Shown: positions 1-64,000, counted from the first letter of the stretch. The stretch is DNA of 64,000 nt from Nanobdellota archaeon (GCA_038045945.1 JBBSXC010000004.1:192001-256000), one strand, 5' to 3'. Notes: generated from the letters alone by a model not told the origin. Program-made: numbers and translations.

Positions 1-1
1 A

Positions 2-1222
2 GAACAAAAAGTAGAAGGAAAAATTAACTCAATATTTGACTCATTTACAAAAGAAAGCATATTCAAAAACAAGAGCTTTCTACAAATAAAACATCTGCCT
101 GAAGATATACTCCATCGAGACGAACAATTACAACAAGTCGCTAGTATCCTAGCACCCGCACTTAGAGGTGAAAGAACAAGTAACCTATTCGTTTATGGAC
201 AAACAGGCACAGGAAAGACTATTTGCGTCAAGTATATCAGAGACCAATTACTAAAAAAAGCTCAAAGCACAGGAGCACCACTAAGAATTGAATATCTTAA
301 CTGTAAACTAAAAAAGGTTGCTGATACAGAATACAGGATTTTAGCAGAACTAATAAAAAAATTAGGAGGAGAAGTACCATCAACAGGCCTACCCACAGAC
401 CAGGTCTATAATAAATTCATTGAGATAATAGAATCAAAAAAACAAACATTCCTACTAATACTTGATGAAATAGACCAAGCGGTTAAAAAGATCTCAAGCG
501 ACTTCCTATATAACCTAACACGTCTCAACTCAGAACTAGAACAAACAACCGTAAGCATAATAGGTATAAGCAATGACCTAAAATTCTTAGACCTAATCGA
601 TCCAAGAGTAAGAAGCAGCTTATCAGAAGAAGAAATAATCTTTGCACCTTACAATGCACTACAATTACAAGACATACTAAAACAAAGAGCTGACTCATCA
701 TTCAAACCAGGAGTACTAAAAGAAGGAGTAATCGCTAAATGCGCAGCTTACGCCGCAAGAGAACACGGAGACGCAAGAAGAGCATTAGACCTATTAAGAA
801 TATCAGGAGAAATAGCTGAAAGGATGACAGAAGGAACAATAGAAATCAAACACATCGATATGGCAAACGAAAAAATTGATAGGGATAAAATATTAGATAT
901 AATATCAGCAGCACCAAAACAATTCCAAATAGTATTATTAGCATCAATTGACCTAATAAGCAAAAATAAAGAACAAAACACAAAAATCTTCACTGGAGAT
1001 ATATACTCATTATACCAGGACTTATGTTCTAAGAGCAGAAACGAGATACTAACACAAAGGAGGGTTAGCGACCTAATAGGAGAATTTGATATGTTAGGAC
1101 TAATAAACGCAAGAGTTGTAAGCAACGGAAGACATGGAAGAACAAGAGAAATAAAACTCCTTATACCAGACCAAATATTACCGAGAGCTAGAGAAATAAT
1201 ACAAAATAATTTGAACTTCTAA
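2..1222 (+). CDS. cdc6: Orc1/Cdc6 replication initiator (5' end cut by window edge)
   Basis: Frame from base 2 reads EQKVEG...LHRDEQL...YGQTGTGKT (Walker A), LILDEID (Walker B), GDARRALDLL and a winged-helix end GRHGRTREI; the track ORF 824..1222 is its C-terminus. Confidence 0.95.
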   Translation, partial: EQKVEGKINSIFDSFTKESIFKNKSFLQIKHLPEDILHRDEQLQQVASILAPALRGERTSNLFVYGQTGTGKTICVKYIRDQLLKKAQSTGAPLRIEYLNCKLKKVADTEYRILAELIKKLGGEVPSTGLPTDQVYNKFIEIIESKKQTFLLILDEIDQAVKKISSDFLYNLTRLNSELEQTTVSIIGISNDLKFLDLIDPRVRSSLSEEEIIFAPYNALQLQDILKQRADSSFKPGVLKEGVIAKCAAYAAREHGDARRALDLLRISGEIAERMTEGTIEIKHIDMANEKIDRDKILDIISAAPKQFQIVLLASIDLISKNKEQNTKIFTGDIYSLYQDLCSKSRNEILTQRRVSDLIGEFDMLGLINARVVSNGRHGRTREIKLLIPDQILPRAREIIQNNLNF

Positions 1223-1226
1223 AAAA

Positions 1227-2807
1227 ATGAATAGAGAAATACTAAAATTTTGTTTAGAAAAAGGGTGCTTAATAGATAAAGAAGCATGCGAAATACTAGA
1301 AAACTTTGAAAATATAGAAATAGCTAAAAAAATCATTATTTCACTAACAGACATACTAAAACAAAAAATAATAACTAAATCAAACATAATAAGCCACTCA
1401 AAACAGATAGAAACATTTGTAGAACAACTAGGAGAAAGAACAACCATAGAAAAAATTAAGATAAGCCTAGGAATAAACATTGAATTATCAAAAGAAACAG
1501 TAGAAAAAACATCAGAATTGGAAACGATTAAGAAAGAATCTAAAGTCAGAGTACTAACAAGCCATTCAGCACTTGAAGAAAAAGTGGAAGTTGAAGACTT
1601 CATCAAACACTTCAAAGCAAGATACGGGGCAATAAGAAACATATTACAACAAAGAACAGAACTAGAAAACCTAACCTCAATAAACAAATTAGGTAACAAA
1701 AGACAAAACGTATCAATAATTGGAATGATTTATGACAAAAGACTAACAAAGAACAAAAACCTAATAATAGAAGTAGAAGACCTAACAGGAAGAATAAGCG
1801 TACTAATAAACAAAGACAAAGAAGACCTTAACGAAATAGCAAAAAGAATGCTACCAGATGACATCATAGGAATAAAAGGCGTTGGTGACAAAGAATTCTT
1901 ATTCGCTAACGGAATAATATACCCAGACTCATTCCTAGAAGAAAAACACAGAATAGAAGAAGACGAATCAATAGCATTCATATCAGATGTACATGTAGGA
2001 AGTAAACTATTCCTAAAAGAAAAACTACTAAAATTCATAGAATGGCTTAACGGAAACTTAGGCGGAGAAGAAGAAAGAGAAGAAGCACTAAAAATAAAAT
2101 ACTTGTTTGTAGTAGGAGACACCATTGACGGAGTAGGAGTATACCCAGGACAAGAAAAATTGTTAGAATTAGTAAACATTGAAGACCAATACAAAGAACT
2201 AGCAAGATACCTAAAAATGATAAGAAAAGACATAACAATAATACTCTCACCAGGACAACATGACTGCGTAAGGGTAGCAGAACCACAACCACCAGTAGGA
2301 AAAGACTATGGATACGCACTACACGAAATAGAAAACCTAATACTAGTAAGCAACCCAGCACTAATAGAAGTAGGATTCAAAAAAGACGAAAAAACAAAAC
2401 TTGAAAAAAGGGGCTTCCGAGTACTGATGTACCACGGAGCAAGCTTCCACCTAATAATTAACGAAATAGACGAACTAAGAATGTCAAAAGCACACGACTC
2501 ACCAACAAAAATAATAAAATTCTTACTAAAAAGAAGACACCTATCACCAGTACACTCATTCAACCCATACATACCAAACCCAGAAAAAGACCCAATGGTA
2601 ATAGACATAGTACCAGACATAGTAGCAACAGGAGACTTGCACAAATCAGACATAGACATATACCAAAACATACTAATGATAGCATCAAGCTGCTGGCAAT
2701 CAACAACACCCTTCGAAGAAAAAGTAGGAAACCACCCAGACCCATGCAAAGTACCAGTATTCAACATGAAAACAAGGAGGCTAAAAGTCCTAGACTTCGC
2801 AAACTAA
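1227..2807 (+). CDS. polB: DNA polymerase D small subunit DP1
   Basis: OB fold then calcineurin-like motifs SDVHVGS, GDTIDGVGVYPGQ, PGQHD, YHG, CWQSTT; lies between cdc6 and DP2. Confidence 0.95.
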   Translation: MNREILKFCLEKGCLIDKEACEILENFENIEIAKKIIISLTDILKQKIITKSNIISHSKQIETFVEQLGERTTIEKIKISLGINIELSKETVEKTSELETIKKESKVRVLTSHSALEEKVEVEDFIKHFKARYGAIRNILQQRTELENLTSINKLGNKRQNVSIIGMIYDKRLTKNKNLIIEVEDLTGRISVLINKDKEDLNEIAKRMLPDDIIGIKGVGDKEFLFANGIIYPDSFLEEKHRIEEDESIAFISDVHVGSKLFLKEKLLKFIEWLNGNLGGEEEREEALKIKYLFVVGDTIDGVGVYPGQEKLLELVNIEDQYKELARYLKMIRKDITIILSPGQHDCVRVAEPQPPVGKDYGYALHEIENLILVSNPALIEVGFKKDEKTKLEKRGFRVLMYHGASFHLIINEIDELRMSKAHDSPTKIIKFLLKRRHLSPVHSFNPYIPNPEKDPMVIDIVPDIVATGDLHKSDIDIYQNILMIASSCWQSTTPFEEKVGNHPDPCKVPVFNMKTRRLKVLDFAN

Positions 2808-2811
2808 AAAA

Positions 2812-5800
2812 ATGAACTCAGAAGAATACTTTAACAAAATACAAGAAGGAGTTGACGGACTATATACTATAGCAAGAGAAGCAAGAGCGAAAGGACTCGA
2901 CCCTTCACGCGACGTAGAAATAAAACTAGCAACAACACTAGGAGCAAAAGCCGTAGGGCTAATATCAACAATATATCCACAAATGGACAAAGTAGAAATA
3001 ATAGACAGGATACTAGAACTAGAAAGGGAGTATGGACAATTAGCGCCTGAAGTATCATTTAAAATAGCTGAAGAAGTAGCAAAACAAAAATTTTGTGAAT
3101 ACAAAAACCAACTAGAAGCAATAGACGCAGGAATAAGACTAGGATTCGCATACAACACACTAGGAGTAGTAAGCAGCCCAATAGAAGGATACACGACACT
3201 AAAAACAAACAAAAATGAAGACGGAGGAGAATACTTTGTACCATACTTTTCAGGACCAATAAGAAGCGCAGGAACAACAGCAAGCTGCATGGTACTAATA
3301 CTAATAGACTTCCTAAGAGAATCATTCGGATACGCAAAATACAAACCAACAGAAAAAGAAATAAAAAGAGTCGTAACAGAACTATATGATTATCACGAAA
3401 GAGTAAACAATCTACAATACTTACCAACAGAAGAAGAAGCAGAATTCTTAGGAAGAAACATGCCAATACAAGTATCAGGAGAACCAACAGAAAAAAGAGA
3501 AGTATCAAACTTCAAAGACCTAGAAAGAATAGAAACAAACTTCATAAGAGGAGGATTCTGCCTAATAATGGGAGAAGGACTAGCACAAAAAGCACAAAAA
3601 GGACTAAGAATCTTAAGAAAACTTCAAACAAGCGGATTCAAAATAAGCGACTGGGAGTTCTTAGAAGAATACGTAGCACTACACAAAAAAAGAGACGAAG
3701 GAAAAAAGTTAGACTCATCACCAACATACATGAAAGACTTAGTAGCAGGAAGACCAATATTCGGACACCCATCAAGAAGCGGATCATTCAGATTCAGATA
3801 CGGAAGAAGCAGATCAGGAGGATTCTCAGCAACAAGCATACACCCAGCAACAATGGCAATAAGTGGAGGATTCATAGCAACAGGAACACAAGTAAAAGTA
3901 GAAAAACCAACAAAAGGGTGCATAACAACAGTATGTGACACTATTGACGGACCAATAGTAAAAATGAAGAACGGAGACCTAAAAAAAGTAAGAAGCGCTG
4001 AAGAAGCAAAAAGTCTATACAAAGACGTAGAAGAAATAGTATACTTCGGAGACATATTATTCTCATTCGGAGACGTACTAAACAGAAACTCACAATTACT
4101 AAAAGCAGGATACGTAGAAGAATGGTGGGAGTTAGAACTAAAAAAAGCATCAGGAGAAACAAAAATGGATGGACTACAATTTCCAAGAACAATAAAACTT
4201 GAAGAAGCAATAAAAATAAGCGAGAAGTACAACATACCACTACACCCAGAATACATCTATTACTGGACACAGATAGACTACAACGCACTATGCTCATTAC
4301 TATACTGGCTAGAAAACAGCCGCCTTCAAGGAAAAATAATCTTACCATACAACAAAGAAGAAAAAGAACAATTCAAAGAGGGAAAAAGAGCACTAGAACT
4401 ATTAGGGGTGCCACATGAAGTAGCAGTAGAGAACGTAGTGCTAAGAGAAGAAGAAAGCAAAGCATTACTATTCAACCTAGGAATACTACCAGACGTATTT
4501 CTCAACGAAAACTACAAACTAAGAGAAGACATAGCACAACTTAAACTAAAAATAAACACCTCAATGACTGTTCTAGAAATAATAAACAAGTTATCATTCG
4601 TAACAATAAAAGACAAAGCAGGAACATTCATAGGATCAAGAATGGGAAGACCAGAAAAAGCAAAACTAAGAAAACTAGTAGGAAGCCCAAGTGTACTATT
4701 CCCAGTAGGAGAAGAGGGAGGAAGATTTAGAAGCGTGAACGAAGCAGGAGAAAAAGGAACAATAAAAGGAGACTTCCCGATACACTACTGTAAAGAATGT
4801 CAAAGAGACACAATATACCCTACTTGCGAAATATGCAAAAACGAAACGGAAAAAAGATACTACTGCATAGACTGCAAAGAAATAATACAAGGAAAAGAAT
4901 GCACAAAAGAAGAACACAAAAGAGTAGTATCACACTCAAACAGAAGAATTGACAGCAAACACTACATACAATCAGCAGCAAAAACACTAGGAATACCAGT
5001 TCGCGACCTACCACCACTAATAAAAGGAGTAAGGGGAACAAGCAACAAAGAACACGTAATAGAAAACTTAAGCAAGGGAATACTGCGAGCAAAACATGGA
5101 CTATGCGTAAACAAAGACGGAACAATAAGGTACGATGCTATAGAAATACCAATAACGCACTTCAAGCCCAAAGAAATAGGAACAACAAAAGAAAAACTAC
5201 TAGAATTAGGATACAACCAAGACGTGAACGGGCAAGAATTAACAAACGATGAACAAGTATTAGAACTAAAACCACATGATATAATACTGCCGTCATGCCC
5301 AGAAGCAAAAGACGAAAAATCAGCTGACGTATTCTTCTCAGTAACAAAATTCTTAGACGAAACACTAGAAAAAATGTATAAGCTGCCAAAATTTTATAAC
5401 CTAACAAAAAAAGAAGAATTAGTAGGGCACTTAGTAACATGCATGAGCCCACACAACTGCGCAGGAGTAGTAGGAAGAATAATAGGGTTCTCAAAAACAC
5501 AAGGATTACTAGCTTCCCCCTACATACACGCAGCAATGAGAAGAGACTGTGACGGAGACGAAGCAGCAGTAATGATGCTACTTGACGTACTACTAAACTT
5601 TTCAAGAGGATTTTTACCAGCACACAGAGGAGGAACACAAGACGCACCACTAGTACTAAACAGCCGCCTAAGAGCAGGAGAAGTAGACGACCAAATATTA
5701 GACTTAGAATTAGTAAACGAACACCCACTAACACTTTACGAACTATCAGAAAAAGGATCACACTCATCAGAAATAAAAATAAGAACAGTAAGAGAAGCAC

Positions 5801-6297
5801 TAAAAAAAGGAGAAGACCCGTTCACAAATATAGGGTACACGCACGCAACAGACAACATAAACGCAGGAGTAACAAACTCATCATACAAATTCCTGCCAAC
5901 AATGCATGACAAAGTAGAAAAACAAATGGAACTAGACACAAAACTAAGATCAGTAGACGAAAGCGACGTAGCAAGACTAATAATAGAAAGACACTTCATA
6001 AGAGACATAAGAGGAAACCTAAGAAAATTCTCACAACAAAGCTTCAGATGCGTAGGGTGCAACGAAATACACCGCAGACCACCAATGAGCGGAAAATGCG
6101 TAAAGTGCGAAGGAAAAATAATATTCACAATATCATACGGAAGCATAATAAAATACTTAGAACCAGCAATAACGCTAGCAACAACATACAACGTAAGCCC
6201 ATACCTAAAACAAAGCTTACTATTAGCAAGAAGCTACATAGAAAGCATATTCGGAAAAGAAAAACACAAACAAGTAGAACTAAAAAAGTGGTTTTGA
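2812..6297 (+). CDS. polC: DNA polymerase D large subunit DP2
   Basis: GPIRSAGTT, RYGRSR, RMGRPEKAK, catalytic RRDCDGDE, Zn-finger CxxC clusters, C-terminal PIP-like QVELKKWF; no intein. Confidence 0.97.
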   Translation: MNSEEYFNKIQEGVDGLYTIAREARAKGLDPSRDVEIKLATTLGAKAVGLISTIYPQMDKVEIIDRILELEREYGQLAPEVSFKIAEEVAKQKFCEYKNQLEAIDAGIRLGFAYNTLGVVSSPIEGYTTLKTNKNEDGGEYFVPYFSGPIRSAGTTASCMVLILIDFLRESFGYAKYKPTEKEIKRVVTELYDYHERVNNLQYLPTEEEAEFLGRNMPIQVSGEPTEKREVSNFKDLERIETNFIRGGFCLIMGEGLAQKAQKGLRILRKLQTSGFKISDWEFLEEYVALHKKRDEGKKLDSSPTYMKDLVAGRPIFGHPSRSGSFRFRYGRSRSGGFSATSIHPATMAISGGFIATGTQVKVEKPTKGCITTVCDTIDGPIVKMKNGDLKKVRSAEEAKSLYKDVEEIVYFGDILFSFGDVLNRNSQLLKAGYVEEWWELELKKASGETKMDGLQFPRTIKLEEAIKISEKYNIPLHPEYIYYWTQIDYNALCSLLYWLENSRLQGKIILPYNKEEKEQFKEGKRALELLGVPHEVAVENVVLREEESKALLFNLGILPDVFLNENYKLREDIAQLKLKINTSMTVLEIINKLSFVTIKDKAGTFIGSRMGRPEKAKLRKLVGSPSVLFPVGEEGGRFRSVNEAGEKGTIKGDFPIHYCKECQRDTIYPTCEICKNETEKRYYCIDCKEIIQGKECTKEEHKRVVSHSNRRIDSKHYIQSAAKTLGIPVRDLPPLIKGVRGTSNKEHVIENLSKGILRAKHGLCVNKDGTIRYDAIEIPITHFKPKEIGTTKEKLLELGYNQDVNGQELTNDEQVLELKPHDIILPSCPEAKDEKSADVFFSVTKFLDETLEKMYKLPKFYNLTKKEELVGHLVTCMSPHNCAGVVGRIIGFSKTQGLLASPYIHAAMRRDCDGDEAAVMMLLDVLLNFSRGFLPAHRGGTQDAPLVLNSRLRAGEVDDQILDLELVNEHPLTLYELSEKGSHSSEIKIRTVREALKKGEDPFTNIGYTHATDNINAGVTNSSYKFLPTMHDKVEKQMELDTKLRSVDESDVARLIIERHFIRDIRGNLRKFSQQSFRCVGCNEIHRRPPMSGKCVKCEGKIIFTISYGSIIKYLEPAITLATTYNVSPYLKQSLLLARSYIESIFGKEKHKQVELKKWF

Positions 6298-6315: not shown

Positions 6316-7194
6316 TTACTTATTTTTAAAATAAAAGAATGCACAAATTAATCCTGCAAGAAATAACGATATGCTTAAAATGTTAGAAGATGATTGAGTA
6401 ACACCTGAAATAACATTTCCTGTAATATTGGATGAAAGAAAGATAAGAGAAACAAGAAAAAGAGTTAATGACGCAGTCGAAAGAGTTGTTTCGAGCTTAC
6501 TTTTTGACTTCTTTGGTAATGGGTGTGACCGGCTGTATGAATCAATAGTCCTTCCTTTTTCGTCAAGCTGTCGATAAGCTAACCAATGGTTCCACGCATA
6601 TTGTTGTATCCTATTCCGTATTTCATCCCGGGAGAACCCGTAATGAGCGTTCCCAAATTCGGAAGGATTATCCTTTCTCCATTGATTATCTGAATAAATT
6701 CTATTTGCCCATTCTTTTTTATCATACTTATTTAATGGTCTAGTCCATTTAGTTTTCCTGAGTACAAAATATCCTCTAAGTTTTCCAGTTTTTGGGTCTC
6801 TAGCTGCTATAGTTGTTGACTTTTGTTTATCATTTAACAAAAATAAATCTATGTCTGTCCAACTAGGTAACCTTTTACGTTCTTCTATCTCAACAGACTG
6901 TTCTTCTTCTCTTGCTTCATCTTCAAAAAATTTAAAAGGAAGAATTTTAGCTAAGTAAGTCGCTACCTTTGAAAGCGGTTTTGGTGATGGGTGGGTATGA
7001 ATTTCTCTATAACCCCCGACTCCTGGGAACCTTTGCTGATCGATAAAGTCTGGTTGCTTAAATCTTACGGAACCTTCATTTCTTTCTTCACTAACATCAT
7101 ATGGTTCCTCGCCAGGATACTTTCGATAAGCTGCTTCTAAATCCGGTCTTGTAGTTGATTCTATAACCTCTTTTGAGTTTCTTCCCTTTTTCAT
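6316..7194 (-). CDS. Membrane-anchored protein with JAB/MPN+-like metal motif
   Basis: EIHTHPS...LPSWTDI; two C-terminal TM helices around SSNITGNVIS; base composition unlike neighbours. Confidence 0.6.
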   Translation of the reverse strand: MKKGRNSKEVIESTTRPDLEAAYRKYPGEEPYDVSEERNEGSVRFKQPDFIDQQRFPGVGGYREIHTHPSPKPLSKVATYLAKILPFKFFEDEAREEEQSVEIEERKRLPSWTDIDLFLLNDKQKSTTIAARDPKTGKLRGYFVLRKTKWTRPLNKYDKKEWANRIYSDNQWRKDNPSEFGNAHYGFSRDEIRNRIQQYAWNHWLAYRQLDEKGRTIDSYSRSHPLPKKSKSKLETTLSTASLTLFLVSLIFLSSNITGNVISGVTQSSSNILSISLFLAGLICAFFYFKNK

Positions 7195-7228: not shown

Positions 7229-8437
7229 CTAAAAGGGCAAATAAAAAATTATAGTTGGTATCAAGAGGCAGCCCATCAAGTTAGTCCTTCTAACACCAAG
7301 ACTAATAGTTAATAATCCTAAAAGCGAAGAAACAGAAAAAACTAACAAACCTAAAAAACCACAAAAAAATAAAACAAGAAAAACGATAAGAGCCAAAACA
7401 AGTAAAGAAACAAGCTTATAGTTAACAACACTAATAATAGAAGAAATTTTCTTACTAACAAAAATACCAACAAAGAAACAAATAATACCAGCAATTAAAG
7501 AAACAAACAAAACAACATAAATATCATTTAAAGAAAAAGAAGGAACCAAAGAAAGAATAACTGCGGCAGCACCAGTACGAGCTTTAGAAATAGCAGCAAT
7601 AGCAACAAATGAAAGGCCGAGAACTAAAACATTAACGCCACCAATAAGCCTCATAAAATCCTCACGATTATCATCAATAAAAGAGGAACCAATAACAGCA
7701 GCCTGACCAGAACCTAGTCCAGGCAAGAAACTAACAAGAGGAGAAGAAATAAGCAAAATCTCAAAATGCTTAACAAAAGAATCCCAAGAAAAACCAAAAA
7801 ATTTATCTAAACCAACAATGGTTTGTTTAGGAACAAAATTATCCTCAAACAAACTAAAAATAATAGAAGAACCACCAAAAAGTCCGCCGAGCAAAGGAAG
7901 AAGAGGCTCAGAAAGACCGAGGTTTAAAGAAGAAAAACCAAGAAAACCAGAAAGAAGAAAAACAAAAAAAGCAAAAAACCACTTACCCTGAGAAAAAATA
8001 AGAAAAAGCGAAGAAGAAATAAGAACAAGCCACATAACGGGAGAAAGATAAAGATAAATTTTAGGAATAACAAAAAATAACGGAAGAGCAATAAGAACAA
8101 AACACAAAAGACCAAAAACACACCCTTGCAAAAAATAAACAGAAGCAGAAAAACCCTCACCCTTAAGAAGAAAATGGTGTCCTGGAATTATCGAAACAGA
8201 AGAATCATCATTAGGACAACCAAGAAATATGCCTGGGATACCATCAAGAAAAGTATGAGCAATAGACAAAGAAACAACAAAAACAATAACCTGATAAGAA
8301 GAAAAAATCTCAGGAGAAAAAATTACTCCAGACAAAAGAATACTACCAACAAGATTAATATGAATTCCAGGAATCAAGCCAGTAAAACAACCAATAAATA
8401 AACCTAAGAAAAAAGCAATCACCAAAGAAAAAATCAT
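7229..8437 (-). CDS. TctA-like (DUF112) tripartite tricarboxylate transporter permease family protein
   Basis: GLIPGIHINL, HTFLDGIPGIFLGCP, IIPGH, FLPGLGS; polytopic membrane protein. Confidence 0.85.
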   Translation of the reverse strand: MIFSLVIAFFLGLFIGCFTGLIPGIHINLVGSILLSGVIFSPEIFSSYQVIVFVVSLSIAHTFLDGIPGIFLGCPNDDSSVSIIPGHHFLLKGEGFSASVYFLQGCVFGLLCFVLIALPLFFVIPKIYLYLSPVMWLVLISSSLFLIFSQGKWFFAFFVFLLSGFLGFSSLNLGLSEPLLPLLGGLFGGSSIIFSLFEDNFVPKQTIVGLDKFFGFSWDSFVKHFEILLISSPLVSFLPGLGSGQAAVIGSSFIDDNREDFMRLIGGVNVLVLGLSFVAIAAISKARTGAAAVILSLVPSFSLNDIYVVLFVSLIAGIICFFVGIFVSKKISSIISVVNYKLVSLLVLALIVFLVLFFCGFLGLLVFSVSSLLGLLTISLGVRRTNLMGCLLIPTIIFYLPF

Positions 8438-13945: not shown

Positions 13946-13967
13946 GAATGAGAAAAGAAAGAGAGGA

Positions 13968-14495
13968 TTATAAAGAAAGTGGTGATAAAACTTTTTGTTC
14001 ATCAATCTTATCATAGATATACTGAGAGAAGAAACCATCATACTTTTTTTGCAGAAACTTATTTTTCCAATCATTTCCTGTAACTAATCCTCTGCATTTG
14101 GGACTCTGGCAGGAACAGACAAAACTATAATCTGTACTTTCGGACATGGCATAATCAAAAGTAATCTCCTCACCAACTGGGATATCCCTCATTGCTACAA
14201 ACTGCATCTTATTCTTAATACCGCAGTTAGGATCACAAGAGTGATTAACATGTCCAAATCTCTTTTCGTTATCATTATTAACTGTGACTAAAAACGAATC
14301 TTTCCCAATCTGAAGCATATGATCAAACCCTGTAGAATACTTTTTGTCAGCTTCAGCTTTACTAATAATTATTTGTGGTGCAGAAGAGAAATCAATTATT
14401 ACTTCTCCTCTCATTATCGGTTTTATAGCAAACGATCCATAACCTGAAATTAAACTTAAACCACTATTAATACTGTTAGAAAAATACGCTCTCAT
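13968..14495 (-). CDS. SET domain lysine methyltransferase-like protein with post-SET motif
   Basis: GYGSFA, VNHSCDPNC, GEEITFDY, CSCQSPKCRG. Confidence 0.9.
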   Translation of the reverse strand: MRAYFSNSINSGLSLISGYGSFAIKPIMRGEVIIDFSSAPQIIISKAEADKKYSTGFDHMLQIGKDSFLVTVNNDNEKRFGHVNHSCDPNCGIKNKMQFVAMRDIPVGEEITFDYAMSESTDYSFVCSCQSPKCRGLVTGNDWKNKFLQKKYDGFFSQYIYDKIDEQKVLSPLSL

Positions 14496-51997: not shown

Positions 51998-53896
51998 ATG
52001 CTTATTAAAGGGGTAAATAAGAGGGGACAAGTAACAATTTTTGTCATCATAGCACTAGTAATATTGGGAGCAATAGGAATATACTTAGCAACAAATTATT
52101 CTACAACGAATCAAGGAATACCAGAACAATTCCAAGAATTAGAAGAATACTACAATTCATGCATAAAAGAAATAGCCAGTGGGGGAATAAGTATAATAGA
52201 AAACAACGGAGGATTTATAGAAGAACCAGAACTAATAAGAGGAAACCCACAAGAACCATTATCCTCAAAAATAAATTATTTAGGAGAAACAATACCCTAC
52301 TGGTTATACCTAAATGACGGAAAAATAGTAGAGCAAGCGCCAACAAAAAATTCTATGCAAGAACAAATAAGCAAATACATAAAAAACAGAATAAATGAAT
52401 GCAACTTTGAAGATTACTCAAGCCAAGGATACATAATAGAAAGGGGAGAAAACCCTGTAGTGGAAGTAACAATCAATAACAAAGAAGTAACAACAAAGGT
52501 GACAGATCAATTAGTGTACGCAAAAGAAGAAACAAAGCAGCTGGTAAGCAACCACGAAATAAGAATAGACAGTAATCTGGGAGCACTATACAATAAAGCA
52601 ATAGAACTATACAACAAAGAATTACAAAACGAATACTTAGAAAATTATACTGTAGACATGATAAGACTATACGCACCAGTTGATGGAGTAGAAATATCAT
52701 GCTCGCCAAAAGTATGGAAAGAAAAAGAAGTATTCGACGAATTAAGAGAAGCAATAGAAGCAAACACACAACAAATAATGCTGGACTCAGGAAAAAATGA
52801 TGATTCAATGACAACAAAAGAAAAATATTTCACAATACCAATAAGCAGCGACGGACTACAAACATACATGCGATACTCAAAAGACTGGCCAACAAGCATG
52901 AAAATACACCAAAGCGACGGAGGAATACTAATAGCAAACCCGGTAGGAAACCAAGAAGGATTAGGAATACTAGGATTCTGCTACGTACCATACCACTTCG
53001 TATACGACCTAGACTACCCACTAATGATACAAATATTCGATGAAAACAGTGAAGAGATGTTCCAATACCCAATACAAGTAATAATAAGATCAAACCACGC
53101 AAGACAAGGAATAAACCAAGTATACCAGGGACTAGAAAACACAATCTGCAAATACAAAGTAAAAAGCATAGAAGTAAACACCTACGATGAAGAAACATTA
53201 ATGCCAGTAGAAGCACAAATATCATTCAAATGCCTAAACGAAGGATGCTACTTAGGGGAAACAAGAACAGACACAAACAATAACGCAAAAGCAACACTTA
53301 ACGCACCACAATGCGTTAACGGATTCTTAACAGCAACAGCAGAAGGATACAACAAAGGAGAATACCAAATATCAACAAATAACGAAACAATAGCAAACAT
53401 ACTGCTAAAAAAACAATACACACTAAACATAAACGTAAAATACGATGACGGACAAGAAGTAAAAAGCAACGCATTCATATACCTAAAACCTGCAAGAGGA
53501 AACGGAGAAGTAAAAACAGTGGTTTGGCCAGAACAAAAAACAATAACTATAACAGAAGGAGAATATAACATAACAGCATACGCATACGAATTGTCAAACA
53601 TAACACTACCAGGAACAAAAGAAAAAAAGTGCTTCCAAGTACCTAGGCCAGGACTATCAGCAGTACTGGGACTAACAAAAGAACAATGCTACGACATAAC
53701 AATACCAGGACAAAAAATAAGCACGAGCATAAGTGGAGGAGGAAAAACAAACTATTACTTCACACAAAGCCAAATAAGAACACAAAAAAACGTACAAGTA
53801 ACAATACCAAGAGGGCCAACACCAAGAACAATAGAAGCACTACAAACAGCATACGCAATAGCAGACAATAAACAAATAACAATAACAACACAATGA
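51998..53896 (+). CDS. Large class III signal-peptide protein
   Basis: NKRG/QVTIFVIIALVILG; Cys pairs; beta-rich C-terminal domains. Confidence 0.8.
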   Translation: MLIKGVNKRGQVTIFVIIALVILGAIGIYLATNYSTTNQGIPEQFQELEEYYNSCIKEIASGGISIIENNGGFIEEPELIRGNPQEPLSSKINYLGETIPYWLYLNDGKIVEQAPTKNSMQEQISKYIKNRINECNFEDYSSQGYIIERGENPVVEVTINNKEVTTKVTDQLVYAKEETKQLVSNHEIRIDSNLGALYNKAIELYNKELQNEYLENYTVDMIRLYAPVDGVEISCSPKVWKEKEVFDELREAIEANTQQIMLDSGKNDDSMTTKEKYFTIPISSDGLQTYMRYSKDWPTSMKIHQSDGGILIANPVGNQEGLGILGFCYVPYHFVYDLDYPLMIQIFDENSEEMFQYPIQVIIRSNHARQGINQVYQGLENTICKYKVKSIEVNTYDEETLMPVEAQISFKCLNEGCYLGETRTDTNNNAKATLNAPQCVNGFLTATAEGYNKGEYQISTNNETIANILLKKQYTLNINVKYDDGQEVKSNAFIYLKPARGNGEVKTVVWPEQKTITITEGEYNITAYAYELSNITLPGTKEKKCFQVPRPGLSAVLGLTKEQCYDITIPGQKISTSISGGGKTNYYFTQSQIRTQKNVQVTIPRGPTPRTIEALQTAYAIADNKQITITTQ

Positions 53897-53924: not shown

Positions 53925-56900
53925 ATGGAACAATTTAACACAATGAAAGTAAAAAAATACTATTTTTACATAACAATAATACTGTTATCAATAATAGCAA
54001 TAACAAACGCAGAAGCAATAACAAACTTCCAAACATTCAACCAAGAAAGAGGTCTAGTAACAAACAACTTCTGGGACATAAACCAAAAAAACGCTATATG
54101 TCAAACAGGACAAGACATGATACTAGAAATAATACCCGGAAGCTGCAGCCCAAGCGTAGTACGAAGCGACTTATTAGAAAGCCAAAACGTACCAGTATTT
54201 TGCCAAGTCACAGGAATAAAAATAAATCCATCAGTAGACCTAGGAAAAATAGCATCAGTAAGCTTCGCAGGAAGCGGAGGACTACCAGAAGGAGTGGCAG
54301 GGATATCATTCTACCCATACAGAGCAGCGGTAACACAAACAAACAACCTATTCACATCAGGAGGAGTAGCAAACATAGGAAACAGCTTAGGATACGTAGT
54401 AGTAGTGCTAAAACAAACACCAGTAGAAAAAGACATGCCAGGGGCAATAATGTTAAACCTAACAGCAAAAATAAGTTATGACGTAAAAAAAGTTTATGGG
54501 TCGGGAAAAGTAGAATACTTCCTACAACAAAACACTGACGAAGAATGGAACGAAAACTACAAAGAATACGGAATATTCAAAGGACAACAATACCTAAGAC
54601 TAGAAGAATTATCAATTGACGGAACGCAAGCAAAAGTAAGCATATACAAAGACAAAGACACAATAATAAATTCAATAAACCTGAGATTAGGAGAACAATC
54701 AAGCCTGCTAAACATACCCGGATTCTACTGCGGAGCAGGAATAAGGATGAAACTAACAGGATCAGAAGCACCAAGAAAAAAAGTACAATTACAAGTGGAC
54801 CAAGACACAATATGGCTACATGAAGGACAAAAATTCCTAAACGAACAATGCGTCGTACGAAGTATTGAAATAACAAACAGAACAAGAAATAACGGGCTAG
54901 AAAAAGGGATAGTAAGAATAAGCTGCCCTAAGGGAAGTTACGAACTAGAAATAAGCGAATTAGACCAAAGCCTAGGGACACAAAACATAGCCTGGGACAA
55001 AGTATTAGCAGGAATAAGCTCAGACCCAACAAAAAAACAAATAATAGAAAGTTTTGAAAAAGCAAAAGAAGAAGCATACCTAGTAGCAGACCTATACACA
55101 AGCGAAAAAAGAAGCAATAACGAAAATTACAAACCAGGACAATTCTACGGCCTTTCAGACTTGCAAGAACTGGCAATAACAGCACAAAACCTAGGACAAT
55201 ATAAAACAGAACTAGAAATACAAGAAAAAATCATAAGCAAATATCCTGGAACAATTGAAGAATTAGAATCACAAAAAAGGATAGGGGAACTAAAAAACTT
55301 TTCATACATAAAAGCAAACGCAATAACAACAGTAGACTTCTCAATACACACAATAACAATAAAAAATTATAAGAATCCAGCAGTAAGCGAAGCAAGCGTA
55401 GAATTTGACAGACCAGCAGAACCAAGGATAATAGGAGACTACATATACACAACAGACAAAAACCAAACTGCTGGAGAAGCAGCAGAAACATGGGTAAGGA
55501 TAAGAGAAATAAAAAAAGACTCAATAATACTACAAGCAAGAATAACAGAAACAATAAAAGACGCTAACGGAAAAGAAACAAAAAACGTTAGAAGCGCAGA
55601 CTACACGATGACAGAAGGACAAACACTAGCAACAATAAACGGACTAAACCTGCCAGGACTAATCGGGGGAATTAACGGAAACAATGTACAACTAAAAAAG
55701 ATTAATCTTAAAGTAGAAGCAAAAGTAGAAGTGGTACCAGAAATATTACAAACAGGAAGCAGCAGCAACTTCACATTCAAAGTAGCAATAGAAAAAAGAG
55801 GAATAAAAATATCAACAGAAAAAACAGAGGAGATGATAAGAAACATTAATGAATCAATAGAAAAATTCACAAAAATAACAGAAAAATTAGGCCAGGCAGT
55901 AGAAACAGGAAAAGCAGCATGCCTAGCAGGAAGCTCAGCACTATTCATTAAAAACTTCATAGCAAATGCAGGAGGAGCAGCAGGCTCAAGAGCAGAAGTA
56001 ATGAACGGACCAGACGGATGGTACCAAAAATGTGATAGGTTAGTAAAAAGTAGCCCTAGCCAATACAACAACCTAAACGACTGCTTACTAAAAAACAACG
56101 CAAACATACAAGAAGACGTAACAAAATGGACAGAAGCAGAAAAAGCAGTTAATACACAATTCGACAATGTGTACAACAAAGAAAACATAACAGGATCACA
56201 ACAAGAATTCATAAAAGTATTCGCAAACGACGTGTGCGGAGGAAAACTAAAAGACAAACAAATAACCATTGAAGAAAAAACAAAAATCATTTGCGGACAA
56301 GGAGGAGTATTCGAAAACAAAGAAGCAGTAATAGCGGCTTATAACCAAGGAGACTTCACAATAGCAGACGCAAAAAAAGTAATGACTGCATCACAAACAT
56401 ACGGAGGAGCAAACACGATAAGCCAAAATACTGACACATTAGGAGCGCAAAAAATAAACGGTTTCTTCTCAAACATGCAAAGAAGGCCAGGACTAACAAC
56501 GGCAAACTATGCTGGTGCTTTAGGAACAGCATCTGGAAAAGTATTCTCAGCATACTCGCCAGACACAAGAATAGCAAACGTTGAAGTAATTGAAGTAAAA
56601 GCGGGAGACAAACTAGGGGGGACGGTTGATGTGAAAGAGGGAAGATACACACTAATATCTGTAGCACCAGGAACAAGATTCGCCGACCCTGCATCAACAA
56701 CAAAACTAGCAGGAAAAGTATTAGTAGTGCCAGTAACAACAGACGCATCAGGAAACGTACAATTAAACGAAAGCGACCCAACAAAAAACATAATAATAGA
56801 CTCGAATGGAAAAAATGTGGACACATTCACAAGAGACGAATACGGGCAGGTATTAGGACAAAACAAAATATCAAGCTTCAAATCAATAACAGAATCACAA

Positions 56901-59339
56901 GCATCATGCTCAAACTATTACCAAAACCCAACAGTAAAATACTTCACAAGCGGACAATACAGCGGACTACCAGCAGTAGTACCAATAGATACAGCAAAAG
57001 GGTGGTACGTAGCAACAAAAGACAGCGAACTAGCGCCATACACAGAAGCAGGACAACTAAGAACATTCTGGATTTGTAACGTAGGAAAAGATGGACTAGA
57101 ACAATTCGATTACGACACAGACGACAAACACACATGCTTCCAAGTAAACCTGGATAAAGGAACACCAGTAGACCAAAGCTACTGCTTTAACGAAGCAGAA
57201 ACAAGGCAAATAATCAGCAGAGCACAACAAGCAATCGGGCAAGCAGGAAAATACGACCAAGGAAGAACAAAAACAAACATCCTTGGAACAAACTACAACA
57301 TAGAAAAAGTAGCATCAAGCGCACCAGGAACACAATGCCAAGACTTCATGAGCCCAAGCGATTGTAACATAATGTTCAATCTGTGCGACCCGGTAATATG
57401 CCCAGCAAGCAGATGCGACCTAGGAGGAACATACAGAGTTGACGACGTAATACAATCAGGAATAGCAGGAAGCATAGCACTATGCTTACCAAACGCAAAA
57501 GAAGGAATATATGTGCCAATATGCTTATCAGGAATATACGCGGGCCTGGACGCATACACAAGCGTGCAAAAAGCACACAGAGACTGCCTACAAAATTCCC
57601 TCGCAACAGGACAATACACAGGACTGTGTGACGAAATAAGATCAGTATACATGTGCGAATTCTTCTGGAGACAAGCAACACCAATAATAAAAGCAGGAAT
57701 ACCAAAACTAATAGAAGGATTAACATCAAGCAACACCGCAAGAGCTGGAGGAGAATACTCAAACTTCCAAAAAGCATACACAACAGCAGACCAATCAGTA
57801 AACTACTTCACACAAGTATACGGACAACAAGCATTCTCAGCATTCAAAATAAGAAGCACGGCAGACATAGGAACACAAGTATGCCAACAATTCGCATCAG
57901 CAAACTACCCAGACAGCGCAAGCATAATAGACTCACTAATAAAACCAGAAAGCCCAGTACAATTCTACGCACAATTCGACGAAATACCATACAGCGAAGC
58001 AACAGTACCGCCAACAAGCCAATACAACGTATTCTACCACATATACGCAGGAAAAGAAAAAGGAACATACTTCACAGTATACCTAAAGAACCCCCCACAA
58101 AACGGGCTATACGCAGGACAAGAAACAATACTAATAAACCAAGGGTTCATACCAGCAGGAGAATACGATTCACAAAAAATAGAAAAAACACTACCATCAG
58201 GATACAGAGAACTATGCGTAAACATTAACGGAAAAGACGAATGCGGATTCCAAAAAGTAACAACAGACTACGGAATAAACACGCTAGGAGACAAATACGC
58301 ACAAGAACAAGCAACAAACCAAGCAGTAACAAAAGAAGAAGAATGCATAAACGGAGACTCAAGCATATACTCACTAGCAAATTCGAATCTAGAAGCAGGT
58401 CTGGATAATGCTCTAAACCCTGCAATATACCAACAAGGAATAATAAGAATGTGCTCTGCACAAAACCCAGGACAAAACGCAGGAGATAACACAGGCCTAG
58501 AAACAGTAAGGTGGAAAGACGTAGGATACTGCACAGACCAAAAAATAAGATGCTGGTTAGACACAACAAGCGTGAAAGAAGTAATAAAAAACAAACAAAT
58601 ACAAAACCAAACAATAGAACAGGTAAGCCAACAACTTGGAGAACCATCACAAGGACAAGCAGAACAAAGAATAAGCGCAGCACTAGGAATAATAAACGGG
58701 GTAACATTCGCAGCAATACAACCAGCACAACTGTATCCTAGCATAATTGACCCAATGACAGAAATAGAACAAGACGCATTCCCATCATTCACAAAAGTAC
58801 GCGCAACAGACACAAAATTCCAAGCATTCATAAAAATAGTAAACGGGCTATACGCAGGACAAACAATAAACAACATAAATACAATAAGCACAAATGTAGC
58901 AAACGCAACAGCACAAATAAAAAGAGACTGCGAAATAACAGGGTACACAATACCCCCAGTAAACCCATTAACTACAGGAAAAACATTACCATTCCTAATA
59001 AACTTCGCAGGACAATGCAACGATTGGAACACAACAACAGTAGAGCTAATAAAAATTGGAGATCCGAACTACGCAAACCAAGATTTTACTCAACAAACAT
59101 ACCAGCATCAAATTGATTTGCAAAAAGAAAAAGGAGTATTCTCACAAAACATAGCGCTAACAGAAAAGGGAAAATATTTCCTAAAAATAAGTTTAACATA
59201 CAAAGACTCACAAGGAAGAACATTCACAGAAATAAGTTATAACGGAAAAGGAAAACAACAATTCGAAGTAATAGACGGAGGAGCAAGCGGAGCGACAAAC
59301 CAAAGTCCAGGAGCTCCAGGAACTTTAGGAAACCCCTAA
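53925..59339 (+). CDS. Giant secreted Cys-rich protein (1804 aa)
   Basis: Signal peptide ending NAEA; dense Cys clusters (CQDFMSPSDC...CDPVICPASRC); no C-terminal TM helix. Confidence 0.8.
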   Translation: MEQFNTMKVKKYYFYITIILLSIIAITNAEAITNFQTFNQERGLVTNNFWDINQKNAICQTGQDMILEIIPGSCSPSVVRSDLLESQNVPVFCQVTGIKINPSVDLGKIASVSFAGSGGLPEGVAGISFYPYRAAVTQTNNLFTSGGVANIGNSLGYVVVVLKQTPVEKDMPGAIMLNLTAKISYDVKKVYGSGKVEYFLQQNTDEEWNENYKEYGIFKGQQYLRLEELSIDGTQAKVSIYKDKDTIINSINLRLGEQSSLLNIPGFYCGAGIRMKLTGSEAPRKKVQLQVDQDTIWLHEGQKFLNEQCVVRSIEITNRTRNNGLEKGIVRISCPKGSYELEISELDQSLGTQNIAWDKVLAGISSDPTKKQIIESFEKAKEEAYLVADLYTSEKRSNNENYKPGQFYGLSDLQELAITAQNLGQYKTELEIQEKIISKYPGTIEELESQKRIGELKNFSYIKANAITTVDFSIHTITIKNYKNPAVSEASVEFDRPAEPRIIGDYIYTTDKNQTAGEAAETWVRIREIKKDSIILQARITETIKDANGKETKNVRSADYTMTEGQTLATINGLNLPGLIGGINGNNVQLKKINLKVEAKVEVVPEILQTGSSSNFTFKVAIEKRGIKISTEKTEEMIRNINESIEKFTKITEKLGQAVETGKAACLAGSSALFIKNFIANAGGAAGSRAEVMNGPDGWYQKCDRLVKSSPSQYNNLNDCLLKNNANIQEDVTKWTEAEKAVNTQFDNVYNKENITGSQQEFIKVFANDVCGGKLKDKQITIEEKTKIICGQGGVFENKEAVIAAYNQGDFTIADAKKVMTASQTYGGANTISQNTDTLGAQKINGFFSNMQRRPGLTTANYAGALGTASGKVFSAYSPDTRIANVEVIEVKAGDKLGGTVDVKEGRYTLISVAPGTRFADPASTTKLAGKVLVVPVTTDASGNVQLNESDPTKNIIIDSNGKNVDTFTRDEYGQVLGQNKISSFKSITESQASCSNYYQNPTVKYFTSGQYSGLPAVVPIDTAKGWYVATKDSELAPYTEAGQLRTFWICNVGKDGLEQFDYDTDDKHTCFQVNLDKGTPVDQSYCFNEAETRQIISRAQQAIGQAGKYDQGRTKTNILGTNYNIEKVASSAPGTQCQDFMSPSDCNIMFNLCDPVICPASRCDLGGTYRVDDVIQSGIAGSIALCLPNAKEGIYVPICLSGIYAGLDAYTSVQKAHRDCLQNSLATGQYTGLCDEIRSVYMCEFFWRQATPIIKAGIPKLIEGLTSSNTARAGGEYSNFQKAYTTADQSVNYFTQVYGQQAFSAFKIRSTADIGTQVCQQFASANYPDSASIIDSLIKPESPVQFYAQFDEIPYSEATVPPTSQYNVFYHIYAGKEKGTYFTVYLKNPPQNGLYAGQETILINQGFIPAGEYDSQKIEKTLPSGYRELCVNINGKDECGFQKVTTDYGINTLGDKYAQEQATNQAVTKEEECINGDSSIYSLANSNLEAGLDNALNPAIYQQGIIRMCSAQNPGQNAGDNTGLETVRWKDVGYCTDQKIRCWLDTTSVKEVIKNKQIQNQTIEQVSQQLGEPSQGQAEQRISAALGIINGVTFAAIQPAQLYPSIIDPMTEIEQDAFPSFTKVRATDTKFQAFIKIVNGLYAGQTINNINTISTNVANATAQIKRDCEITGYTIPPVNPLTTGKTLPFLINFAGQCNDWNTTTVELIKIGDPNYANQDFTQQTYQHQIDLQKEKGVFSQNIALTEKGKYFLKISLTYKDSQGRTFTEISYNGKGKQQFEVIDGGASGATNQSPGAPGTLGNP

Positions 59340-62597: not shown

Positions 62598-63086
62598 ATG
62601 AATCACAAAAAGATTTGGGGAAGAACGGTAGTACTAACAATGATAACTTGGATAATTTTGTCTTTAGTTATGTGGTATAAGAGATTCTTCATAACTATTT
62701 GTATCGCTGAAGCAGGGGTTAAATGCCCATCAGGTCTAGAATTATTCGCAAGTTTCTCAATAAGGATAATACCATTTTTTATAATACTCTTCGCGATAAT
62801 TAGTTATATAATAGAGTATTATAAGTTAAAAGCGAAAGGCCTAAATATAGACCACTTGAGGGTCTGGTTAATAACAATAATAAGCTCCGCTGTCATATGG
62901 GTTATAATCTATTTAGCCGGTTTAAAAGCAGGATATTTCAGAGTTATGTGCTTTCAAGGGCCGTGCCCCTTACAGCTAGAAGTTTATTTACAGTACTCAA
63001 AACTACTGCTGCCAATAATAATTTTATTATTAGCCGGAATTAATTACTTAATAGAATACTTTCTTGAAAGAAAAAAGCAGCAGTAA
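62598..63086 (+). CDS. Membrane protein made of two tandem TM-Cys loop-TM repeats
   Basis: C...CPSGLE...ISYIIEYY and C...CPLQLE...INYLIEYF. Confidence 0.7.
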   Translation: MNHKKIWGRTVVLTMITWIILSLVMWYKRFFITICIAEAGVKCPSGLELFASFSIRIIPFFIILFAIISYIIEYYKLKAKGLNIDHLRVWLITIISSAVIWVIIYLAGLKAGYFRVMCFQGPCPLQLEVYLQYSKLLLPIIILLLAGINYLIEYFLERKKQQ

Positions 63087-63140
63087 TCTATAATAAAATT
63101 TTGTAGATATATTTAAAAACTAAAAAAGTTGAGTGACCTT

Positions 63141-63389
63141 ATGGCTAACGGAATTGAAAGACCACTTGACCTTTTGAATCACTCAAAGGGAAAAGAGATC
63201 TTAGTACAATTGAACGACGAAAAACAGCTAGTAGGAACACTACTTGCATTTGACATCCACATCAACCTGGTGTTAGACAATGCAAAAGAGATGCACAACG
63301 GAGAAATGAAAAGAAGCATAGGCTTAACATTTTTACGAGGAGCTACGATATCATTCATAGCACCAGCATCAACTGCTAGCAAAAAATAA
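63141..63389 (+). CDS. Sm-like protein (Lsm/SmAP1)
   Basis: ERPLDLL, GTLLAFDIHINLVL, FLRG. Confidence 0.92.
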   Translation: MANGIERPLDLLNHSKGKEILVQLNDEKQLVGTLLAFDIHINLVLDNAKEMHNGEMKRSIGLTFLRGATISFIAPASTASKK

Positions 63390-63490
63390 TCAAGCATTAA
63401 ATTATCTAGACCTTTGCTTGTCTAGAAAAAGATGATAAATGATTAATAAATAGTGCTAACTCTAAAAAAAAGAAGCTCATTATAAAAAAA

Positions 63491-64000
63491 CTAAAATTCG
63501 AATTTGTCTAAATCATTAGTTAACTTAGTATTCTTAAAAACTTCACAAGCCTGATCCAAAAGAATAGACTCTTTATGCTCATATCTTTGAGAAAAATGAG
63601 TAAGAAGAAGAATTTTAGACTTAGACTTCTTAGCAATAGAAGCAGCTTGACGAGAAGTCATATGCTTATACTCAAGAGCAGTCTCTTCCTCATTATCACC
63701 ATAAGTAGACTCACAAATAAGAGCAGTAGAATTCTTAGCTAATCTAACAGCATTATCATTAGGAGAAGAATCAAAAATAATAGTCAACTTCTTACCAGGC
63801 TCAGCATAAGTCAAAGACTTAGACTTAACCTTCTTACCATTAATAACAACATCCTTACCAGCCTTAATATCCCCAAGCAAAGGAGAATTAGGAATATTAA
63901 ACTTCTTAAGCTTAGCACTATCAATCCGAAGCTTATCCTTACCAACAATAGAAAAAGCCAAGCAAGGAACAGTATGAGTCATTAAAGAACACTCAACAAA
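63491..64000 (-). CDS. rnz: Ribonuclease Z, C-terminal part (cut by window edge)
   Basis: HTVPC, exosite, LICESTY, HMTS, LLTHFSQRY. Confidence 0.9.
   Translation of the reverse strand, partial: FVECSLMTHTVPCLAFSIVGKDKLRIDSAKLKKFNIPNSPLLGDIKAGKDVVINGKKVKSKSLTYAEPGKKLTIIFDSSPNDNAVRLAKNSTALICESTYGDNEEETALEYKHMTSRQAASIAKKSKSKILLLTHFSQRYEHKESILLDQACEVFKNTKLTNDLDKFEF

Follow-up and report, generated by a model that had tools for sequence, protein, structure and literature searches.

Why should one strand of an archaeal chromosome be rich in A whichever way its genes run? The question is raised by a 64,000-nucleotide stretch from a Nanobdellota archaeon (GCA_038045945.1, JBBSXC010000004.1:192001-256000), which we refer to in its whole length as the window and which corresponds to C4:192001-256000 of the genome under study, G000, an assembly of 847,022 bp in seven contigs (among them C4, 304 kb, and C3, 252 kb) with a GC content of about 35% and an estimated completeness of 93%. 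A sequence-only reading of the window had ascribed the asymmetry to a replication-linked mutational bias of Borrelia-like strength acting on one replichore. We find that the asymmetry is linked to the chromosome strand, not to gene orientation, and that it keeps one sign on both flanks of a candidate replication origin at the window's edge and through every contig. We give a probability of about one in two to a lineage-specific mutational asymmetry that would arise through essentially one-directional or strand-asynchronous replication from an Orc1 origin.

Genes were taken as greedily called open reading frames (ORFs) of at least 90 amino acids, a crude set rather than gene-finder output, and four-fold-site AT and GC skews (AT4 and GC4) are stated for the top strand regardless of gene direction. 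The + strand of the window carries 27,018 A, 14,268 T, 12,056 C and 10,658 G (AT skew +0.309), and AT skew was negative in 0 of 125 sliding 2-kb windows. The composition at four-fold sites is A.75, C.05, G.08 and T.11 in + genes (n = 4,560) and, in coding-strand letters, T.82, A.07, C.07 and G.03 in - genes (n = 3,237). AT4 was +0.74 in + genes and +0.83 in - genes; read on the coding strand the values are +0.74 and -0.83, and a gene-following skew of the Szybalski type was not seen. The sequence-only reading had itself named skew that follows gene direction as the observation that would count against it; when that check was run, the skew followed the chromosome strand, and the + strand was A-rich under either gene direction, as had been claimed. 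Its description of A- or C-ending codons in + genes and T- or G-ending codons in - genes agrees with the skews over all third positions (top-strand AT skew +0.67 in both gene classes; GC skew -0.39 and -0.49, that is, C over G), and its example segment, 7381-7440, does contain 33 A and 10 T and lies inside a minus-strand TctA gene.

The bias was present in all eight four-fold codon families and in all neighbour contexts, with the rare CGN codons of A-strand genes as the sole exception. At two-fold sites the preference was for C (over T) and A (over G) in + genes and for T (over C) and G (over A) in - genes. A-strand proteins were enriched in T, E, Q, N and I, and T-strand proteins in F, V, D, S and L. 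The protein shift proposed from the sequence therefore held for I, T, E and N on the plus strand and for F, V, S and D on the minus strand; it did not hold for K, whose usage is nearly equal in the two classes (ratio 1.05). Because the asymmetry is strongest at four-fold sites, is uniform over families and contexts and shifts amino-acid usage, it looks mutational in origin.

The pattern extends well beyond the window, which is the strongest region of the genome (AT4 0.75-0.88 per 10 kb). Each of the seven contigs is single-signed (AT skew magnitude 0.17-0.39, GC skew magnitude 0.01-0.10), and no sign switch occurs in 10-kb bins in any of them (847 kb), so that the absence of a switch over 64 kb, noticed at the outset, is a property of the whole assembly. 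ORFs are divided between the strands (480 on +, 420 on -), and 52 of 900 have a third-position AT skew opposite to that of their contig, mostly near zero. Five adjoining minus-strand ORFs at C4:51422-55604 have reversed third-position AT skews of -0.31 to -0.57; this island (C4:51.4-55.6 kb) looks like a recent inversion. Genes at C4:185-189 kb, just left of the origin described below, are nearly unskewed and, like an ORF at window positions 6316-7194, may have been acquired recently.

The window begins at what is probably the replication origin module. The Cdc6_C domain has a single match in G000 (C4:192899-193171), in an orc1/cdc6 gene (C4:191981-193222) that is the first ORF of the window and is followed by the genes for the two subunits of DNA polymerase D (PolD), DP1 and DP2. 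The named window genes on which the argument draws are as follows (window coordinates).

2-1222, + strand: orc1/cdc6, the single copy detected in G000, with its start at C4:191981, 20 nt outside the window on the left
1227-2807, + strand: PolD small subunit DP1 (Pfam), third-position AT skew +0.80
2812-6297, + strand: PolD large subunit DP2 (Pfam), four-fold AT skew +0.89
6316-7194, - strand: ORF of 292 aa without a Pfam match, third-position AT skew -0.06/-0.07; possibly a recent arrival or a false ORF
7229-8437, - strand: TctA-family transporter, third-position top-strand AT skew +0.76; includes 7381-7440
12377-14074, - strand: DEAD/DEAH helicase, a true minus-strand gene with T-ending codons
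36865-37935, - strand: RadA (Rad51-family) recombinase (Pfam)
38440-39042, + strand: uracil-DNA glycosylase (UDG; Pfam)
43221-44591, - strand: SRP54, a conserved gene with a T-rich coding strand
44648-45835, - strand: FtsY, a conserved gene with a T-rich coding strand

Pfam matches in the window comprise Orc1/Cdc6, PolD DP1, PolD DP2 and UDG on the + strand and DEAD helicase, SRP54, FtsY, RadA, DHH nuclease, TctA, TFB and GTPases on the - strand. PolD, Orc1/Cdc6, RadA, TFB and SRP54/FtsY mark G000 as archaeal; within DPANN it is of Pacearchaeota/Woesearchaeota type.

The candidate oriC is the 683-bp spacer C4:191298-191980, directly upstream of cdc6 and just outside the window. It contains a 29-nt inverted repeat pair (positions 246-274 and 497-525 of locus L051) and a third related box (403-420), and these boxes enclose an almost pure A/T stretch (about 305-370); we take them to be ORB-like, as recognised from archaeal origins in general. 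The core box, TTCCNNNGGAA, lies 84 bp upstream of the G000 cdc6 and has six copies in the whole genome. When 900 bp upstream of cdc6 were searched in 36 relatives, it was found in 11 of the 36, at 23-153 bp from the start and at 8-fold the background density; the gene order cdc6-DP1-DP2-TctA is likewise conserved in relatives. AT4 in the two 10-kb bins left of oriC was +0.63 and +0.41, and to the right +0.75 to +0.88: positive on both flanks, without the classical sign change of an origin or terminus.

We compared this locus with its counterparts in related genomes. In DP2, the four-fold AT skew was +0.89 in G000 versus -0.33 to +0.40 across 29 GTDB relatives, which, the congener included, lack the bias; the sequence-only reading had supposed it unusual, and among these relatives it is. 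The congener G001 (263 kb, 20 contigs) has per-strand four-fold AT skews of -0.40 to +0.39 without consistent sign, and its 64-kb origin contig is weakly skewed too. Between G000 and G001 we identified 115 reciprocal-best orthologues (median identity 65.6%). At conserved four-fold codons, A-strand genes have 39% A and 26% T in G001 versus 76% A and 13% T in G000, and T-strand genes 28% A and 34% T versus 14% A and 77% T; G+C at these codons is about 35-38% in G001 and about 10% in G000. Net amino-acid gains in G000 relative to G001 were T, K, I, Q and N on the A strand and V, D, S and F on the T strand. Because G001 is near balance at conserved four-fold codons and the other relatives lack the bias, the asymmetry is, judging from these alignments, derived in the G000 lineage, after its split from the congener.

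Among public DP2 loci we examined 53 of 74, leaving aside 21 that were distant (at most 44% identity) or truncated; the closest come from metagenome-assembled genomes (MAGs) labelled Candidatus Pacearchaeota, Woesearchaeota or Nanoarchaeota. In 48 of the 53, cdc6 lies upstream, and AT4 right of the origin there is -0.44 to +0.08. Seven loci from Pace- and Woesearchaeota MAGs (L111, L112, L119, L141, L142, L146 and L150) have clearly positive GC4 on either side of cdc6, as in the pairs +0.72/+0.48 and +0.43/+0.50, values that come from small samples with only 6-7 kb on the left side; the skew in these MAGs may not flip at cdc6. Two order-level relatives (G028 and G030) show weak bias only, linked to gene orientation.

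G003, a relative of the same family, is a single 511-kb contig. Right of its origin AT4 is -0.2 to -0.3 and GC4 +0.3, and left of it AT4 is +0.05 to +0.18 and GC4 -0.1; the skew flips exactly at the oriC-cdc6 module and again about half-way round, and the leading strand away from the origin is T- and G-rich. Skew flips at the same locus in G002, whose arms are unequal (contig C8: AT4 +0.35 on one flank of its origin and about 0 to -0.1 on the opposite flank). In a third relative of this family, a 62-kb contig (G015:C8, L097-L100) has GC4 of -0.51 to -0.69 throughout. All three share with G000 the oriC-cdc6-DP1-DP2 module, and G003 also the flanking gene order; all have orientation-independent four-fold skews that are strong for archaea (magnitudes of AT4 up to 0.38 and of GC4 up to 0.69). 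By contrast with G003 and G002, which change sign at the origin, G000 has one sign and an A/T component 2-4 times stronger, and its sign right of the origin is contrary to its own family's leading-strand rule. Among 270 reciprocal-best pairs, the region 0-64 kb right of the G000 oriC matches 0-96 kb of G003, and 676-846 kb of G000 matches 410-510 kb of G003, both in the same orientation. We considered a replichore inversion as the source of the difference and excluded it, because the origin flanks are collinear and co-oriented with those of G003.

Whether the chromosome as a whole has one polarity depends on how the seven contigs are joined, which we evaluated with the A-rich strand of every contig placed on top. 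Five right ends break inside outward-running giant open ORFs of 646 to 1999 aa, and five left ends hold the matching inward 3' parts; three left ends open with the same 55-mer (identical in C5 and C7), the C-terminus of tandem giant paralogues of which C6 has complete copies. The end of C1 and the start of C7 carry two halves of a single gene, spanned by a 188-aa homologue in G001, and the G001 genes downstream of that homologue are collinear into C7. The end of C5 (C5:59862-60344) is the first 493 positions of the 16S rRNA, and the start of C4 (C4:1-1114) covers 23S positions 1859-2987 on the same strand; these pieces are the only rRNA in G000 (cmscan, blastn), 16S and 23S are adjacent and co-oriented in 15 of the 15 relatives that have both, and the genes flanking the G003 rRNA operon match C5 and C4 in order. 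Reverse-complemented C1 joins C3 through a 53-nt overlap that keeps the reading frame, C4 joins reverse-complemented C2 within one giant repetitive ORF, and the C3-C5 join is backed by G003 synteny and by the 55-mer ending the giant paralogues. The two remaining joins follow by elimination and yield a unique single circle, which reads, with rc for reverse complement: oriC, right part of C4, rc C2, rc C6, rc C7, rc C1, C3, C5, left part of C4. The gap at the rRNA genes is put at about 3.2 kb. Polarity is kept in all seven joins (five with independent support, two by elimination), and the chromosome very probably has one polarity throughout. A switch hidden at the four non-repeat contig ends was considered and rejected: these ends pair as C1-C7 and C5-C4, with polarity kept both times.

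Several observations accompany the joins. The giant paralogues form an internally repetitive, tandem family, all on the A-rich strand, that causes five of the seven assembly breaks; members lie at C4:298.4-304.4 kb, in C2 and C6, at the end of C3 and at the start of C1, the complete copies in C6 are 1174 and 1709 aa long, and one member carries a Gly/Pro/Thr-rich low-complexity repeat. A profile search with RF01959 and RF02540 missed the partial rRNAs at the contig ends of G000, and absences in that search are unreliable for truncated rRNAs. The congener is also rearranged: genes at 305-5139 of G001:C5 (L035) match C1:47798-43852 of G000 in reverse and adjoin the homologue of the gene shared by the end of C1 and the start of C7, about 90 kb away in G000.

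With the contigs in the inferred order and the circle started at oriC (887 genes), AT4 per 40-kb bin ran from +0.41 to +0.77 with constant sign. It fell with distance from oriC (Spearman rho -0.25, p 1e-13), in a noisy gradient (R2 about 0.27), and GC4 fell from about +0.3 to -0.1 (rho -0.32). Among 170 scanned positions, the greatest step-up of both AT4 and GC4 lay within 10 kb of oriC, with a median AT4 of 0.85 in the 60 kb to the right versus 0.53 in the 60 kb to the left (p 1.4e-5); the asymmetry peaks just right of oriC, in the window, and wanes round the circle to a minimum just left of it. Two-fold sites behaved alike. Over the 21 full 40-kb bins (a terminal 7-kb bin, with fewer than 110 sites per class in + genes, was omitted), C/(C+T) was 0.54-0.76 and G/(A+G) 0.09-0.20 in + genes, versus 0.12-0.33 and 0.33-0.70 in - genes; these asymmetries are single-signed and gradually weaken, G/(A+G) in - genes falling from 0.70 by oriC to about 0.35 at 600 kb. 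Logistic fits to A/T did not separate a linear sawtooth (log-likelihood gain 312) from a step (300). Only the weak four-fold G/C component changes sign, at oriC and at 432 kb.

How could a canonical origin give rise to such a pattern? In the reading that we favour, the chromosome would be copied mainly in one direction, or strand-asynchronously in the manner of vertebrate mitochondrial DNA (mtDNA), starting at the Orc1 origin, and the same parental strand would be exposed single-stranded all round the circle. By the family rule, in which the leading strand is T- and G-rich, the A-rich + strand of G000 looks 'lagging' everywhere, and for this reason the simplest version would be one in which only the leftward fork from oriC is productive; the window would then be replicated last, by forks traversing it from right to left. 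At its two-fold sites the T-rich strand has an excess of T relative to C and of G relative to A; at its four-fold sites purines are drained to T. Prolonged single-strandedness is credited with C to T and A to G changes and with loss of purines to T, a chemistry that is presented as established in the relevant part of Xia 2012 (PMC3269012). The T-rich strand thus has the pattern expected of longer single-stranded exposure, an explanation that we infer to apply here. The fuller proposition, that an archaeal chromosome with a canonical Orc1/ORB origin is copied one-directionally or asynchronously and has acquired a mitochondrion-like, single-polarity, graded asymmetry within its genus, we put forward tentatively.

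Several points weigh against one-directional or asynchronous copying. The origin retains two ORB-like arms around its A/T stretch and is not visibly one-sided. Simple strand displacement with the T-rich strand displaced is calculated to predict the opposite gradient, and the leftward-fork version would require exposure to grow along the path of the fork. No replication or repair gene was found to be lost among the eight families checked in G000. Four-fold G/(G+C) was fitted better by a step placed at 432 kb, 51% of the way round, than by a linear trend (log-likelihood gain 123 versus 96), and such a step is the pattern typical of ordinary bidirectional replication. 'Intergenic' DNA has an AT skew of +0.15, versus about +0.57 at four-fold sites. 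Finally, the seven-contig genome is not closed, two joins were made by elimination, and the joins through giant genes presuppose that there are no additional unassembled giant-gene copies. Two of these points admit another explanation. The weak spacer skew may come from constraint and unannotated small genes, because spacer skew is likewise attenuated, 2- to 5-fold, in G003. The G/C sign change can be a by-product of the purine:pyrimidine ratio alone, because round the circle only that ratio varies, A/(A+G) staying close to 0.90 and T/(T+C) close to 0.75.

The gene content itself did not point to a cause. Genes for UDG, endonuclease V, one HhH-GPD glycosylase, PolB, RNase HII, NucS/EndoMS and an ExoIII-type AP endonuclease are present; endonuclease IV gave a sub-threshold match only. 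AGOG scored above cut-off in 0 of 31 genomes, and also in 0 of 14 controls, which makes that search uninformative. We therefore rejected the loss of a standard repair or replication gene, since the genes are present by profile match; in particular, UDG loss does not explain the bias, because the gene lies in the window at 38440-39042. Gene-orientation bias was also considered as a means of reading fork direction. On the rebuilt circle the A-rich strand carries a fraction of 0.58 of the coding bases in the right half versus 0.53 in the left, and the measure is uninformative: G003, which flips, has about 58% of its coding bases on + in both replichores.

The alternative that survives best retains ordinary bidirectional replication from the Orc1 origin and adds a second process that marks one physical strand round the circle, such as a recurrent phase in which the whole chromosome is single-stranded (rolling-circle or transfer-like), copying of fixed polarity that is break-induced or recombination-dependent, or pervasive one-directional transcription. 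It would account for the four-fold G/(G+C) steps at oriC and 432 kb, whose levels (0.61 and 0.47) have the sign pattern of G003, and for the higher GC4 of right-half than of left-half bins at equal AT4 (about 0.6); it also fits the fact that G000 shares its origin architecture and flanking gene order with a relative that flips. Against this, the GC4 sign change is derivable from the purine:pyrimidine gradient, and the A/T and transition asymmetries break at one place, oriC, and so are tied to replication. None of the genes examined indicates a candidate process, and we know of no strand-marking process of this kind for a cellular chromosome. We regard such a combination as unlikely, though worth keeping in view.

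Much less can be said for ordinary leading/lagging bias with the window inside one replichore, as first proposed from the sequence, the switches falling in assembly gaps and the Orc1-adjacent origin lying unused. The skew is indeed strand-linked and independent of orientation, relatives in the family have sizeable replication-linked skews, and the two long contig chains (445 and about 400 kb) are near equal, as replichores would be. Yet the window starts at the sole orc1/cdc6, beside an origin with the same skew sign on either side, and five of the seven joins, including both non-repeat joins and C3-C5, preserve polarity on independent grounds. All seven joins can be reconstructed with polarity kept and no contig contains a switch; a hidden switch would require extra unassembled giant-gene halves. 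The magnitude step at oriC would remain unexplained and the gradients on the two arms would be incoherent. Moreover, the relatives use the same origin: it is at this locus that G003 and G002, whose leading strand is T-rich, flip. We consider this part of the sequence-only reading very unlikely.

It is scarcely conceivable that the asymmetry is a relic, that is, a strong replicative skew made uniform by replichore inversion or origin relocation and not yet re-equilibrated. The reversed and unskewed segments at C4:51.4-55.6 kb and C4:185-189 kb do show that inverted or new DNA keeps its old composition for a while. Gene order and orientation on both origin flanks nevertheless agree with G003 for about 60-170 kb, and cdc6-DP1-DP2-TctA is a conserved order; the 'wrong-sign' side, instead of decaying, has the stronger skew, and the congener offers no strong skew as a starting point.

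Codon preference that differs by strand, or an artefact of assembly or sequencing, can be all but dismissed: four-fold sites are more skewed than spacers, as codon selection could yield, but G003 has the same spacer attenuation, all eight four-fold families and contexts behave alike under one tRNA pool for all genes, chromosome strand is the sole difference between the two gene classes, amino-acid usage shifts in the mutationally expected direction, and the long ORFs are unbroken, the Pfam matches strong on either strand, and the tRNAs and rRNA normal.

Is anything comparable known? Asymmetry in animal, and in particular vertebrate, mtDNA is of a strength comparable to that in G000. Vertebrate mtDNA has a single-sign, graded asymmetry that Xia 2012 (PMC3269012), in the sections that bear on this, explains by strand-displacement replication. 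By that account, mtDNA resembles G000 in having a single sign round the circle, an A+C-rich versus a G+T-rich strand at two-fold sites, a graded magnitude with a discontinuity at the origin, and reshaped codon usage and protein composition. It differs in that G000 is an 850-kb cellular chromosome with a canonical Orc1/ORB origin, in that the exposed-looking strand of G000 is T-rich and purine-poor at four-fold sites and not G+T-rich, and in that the direction of the G000 gradient misfits the simplest displacement model.

Among cellular genomes, the nearest parallel is bacterial. Representatives from the candidate phyla radiation (CPR), namely Microgenomates Ch65, Ca. Collierbacteria and Ca. 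Beckwithbacteria, have G/C strand disparity over the whole chromosome, and for these closed genomes unidirectional replication was proposed but not proven, according to the relevant portions of Kadnikov 2020 (PMC7143001). As described there, the strands differ along the entire chromosome without a skew switch, as they apparently do in G000; genes are split about evenly (449/389, compared with about 54:46 by bases in G000); and the trait, there as in G000, is clade-restricted and belongs to uncultivated groundwater or subsurface organisms with tiny genomes. The reported CPR disparity is one of G/C (C 29.8%, G 15.0%), A and T being about equal, whereas that of G000 is mainly one of A/T (window: A 42%, T 22%), C exceeding G only slightly overall. 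The CPR genomes are closed and those of bacteria with DnaA-type replication; G000 consists of seven contigs in inferred order and is an archaeon with Orc1 and PolD. G000 also has a graded magnitude with a step at the origin, unlike the CPR account.

Borrelia, with which the asymmetry had first been compared, shares with G000 an orientation-independent four-fold bias, two classes of codon usage by strand and amino-acid effects; its skew flips at a central origin, and that of G000 does not flip at its own. For strength, the values given in Morton & Morton 2007 (PMC2099444, Table 6) for B. burgdorferi four-fold (D4) sites are RT 0.300 and RG 0.229; among 352 bacterial chromosomes the highest overall value given there is 0.446. 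In G000, AT4 comes to 0.74-0.83 over the window and to 0.41-0.77 across the genome in 40-kb bins; this exceeds the Borrelia T/A component (0.300) by a factor of about 2 to 2.7, although the measures may be defined differently. The strong asymmetry claimed from the sequence is thus real, and its likening to Borrelia understates it.

Archaeal skews are commonly regarded as weak or multi-origin. A peaked skew of the bidirectional type is reported for only 18 of 224 RefSeq archaeal genomes, and for one DPANN, in Chen 2020 (PMC7111523), which also mentions bacterial genomes with a 'rolling circle' skew pattern. Our search of the literature on skew in DPANN, Pacearchaeota and Woesearchaeota and on archaeal unidirectional replication, made partly by title and abstract, found no such archaeal case. 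New here are the near-complete circle, the origin of the state within a genus and the contrast with a collinear relative that flips.

A silent-site strand bias above that of any of the 352 bacterial chromosomes benchmarked in PMC2099444, as far as its tabulated values go, is thus found in an archaeon; it rewrites codon and amino-acid usage by strand and, contrary to expectation, ignores a canonical origin. If one-directional or asynchronous copying is the true cause, G000 would be a natural experiment on archaeal replication mode, and, together with the CPR cases, would imply that ultra-small symbionts repeatedly gave up symmetric bidirectional replication. If the cause is otherwise, it would be a new kind of strand-marking process. 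Either way, such genomes violate the assumptions of skew-based origin finding, of the detection of horizontal gene transfer by codon usage and of compositional phylogenetics.

The window sequence occurs in four public runs, all of them groundwater metagenomes. At 49869-49971 on the - strand, Rfam identifies a tRNA (103 nt, 60 bits) that ARAGORN missed; its length suggests that it holds an intron. Four large ORFs on the + strand of the window have no Pfam family at E<=0.001: 53925-59339 (1804 aa), 24023-27226 (1067 aa), 21715-23883 (722 aa) and 51998-53896 (632 aa).

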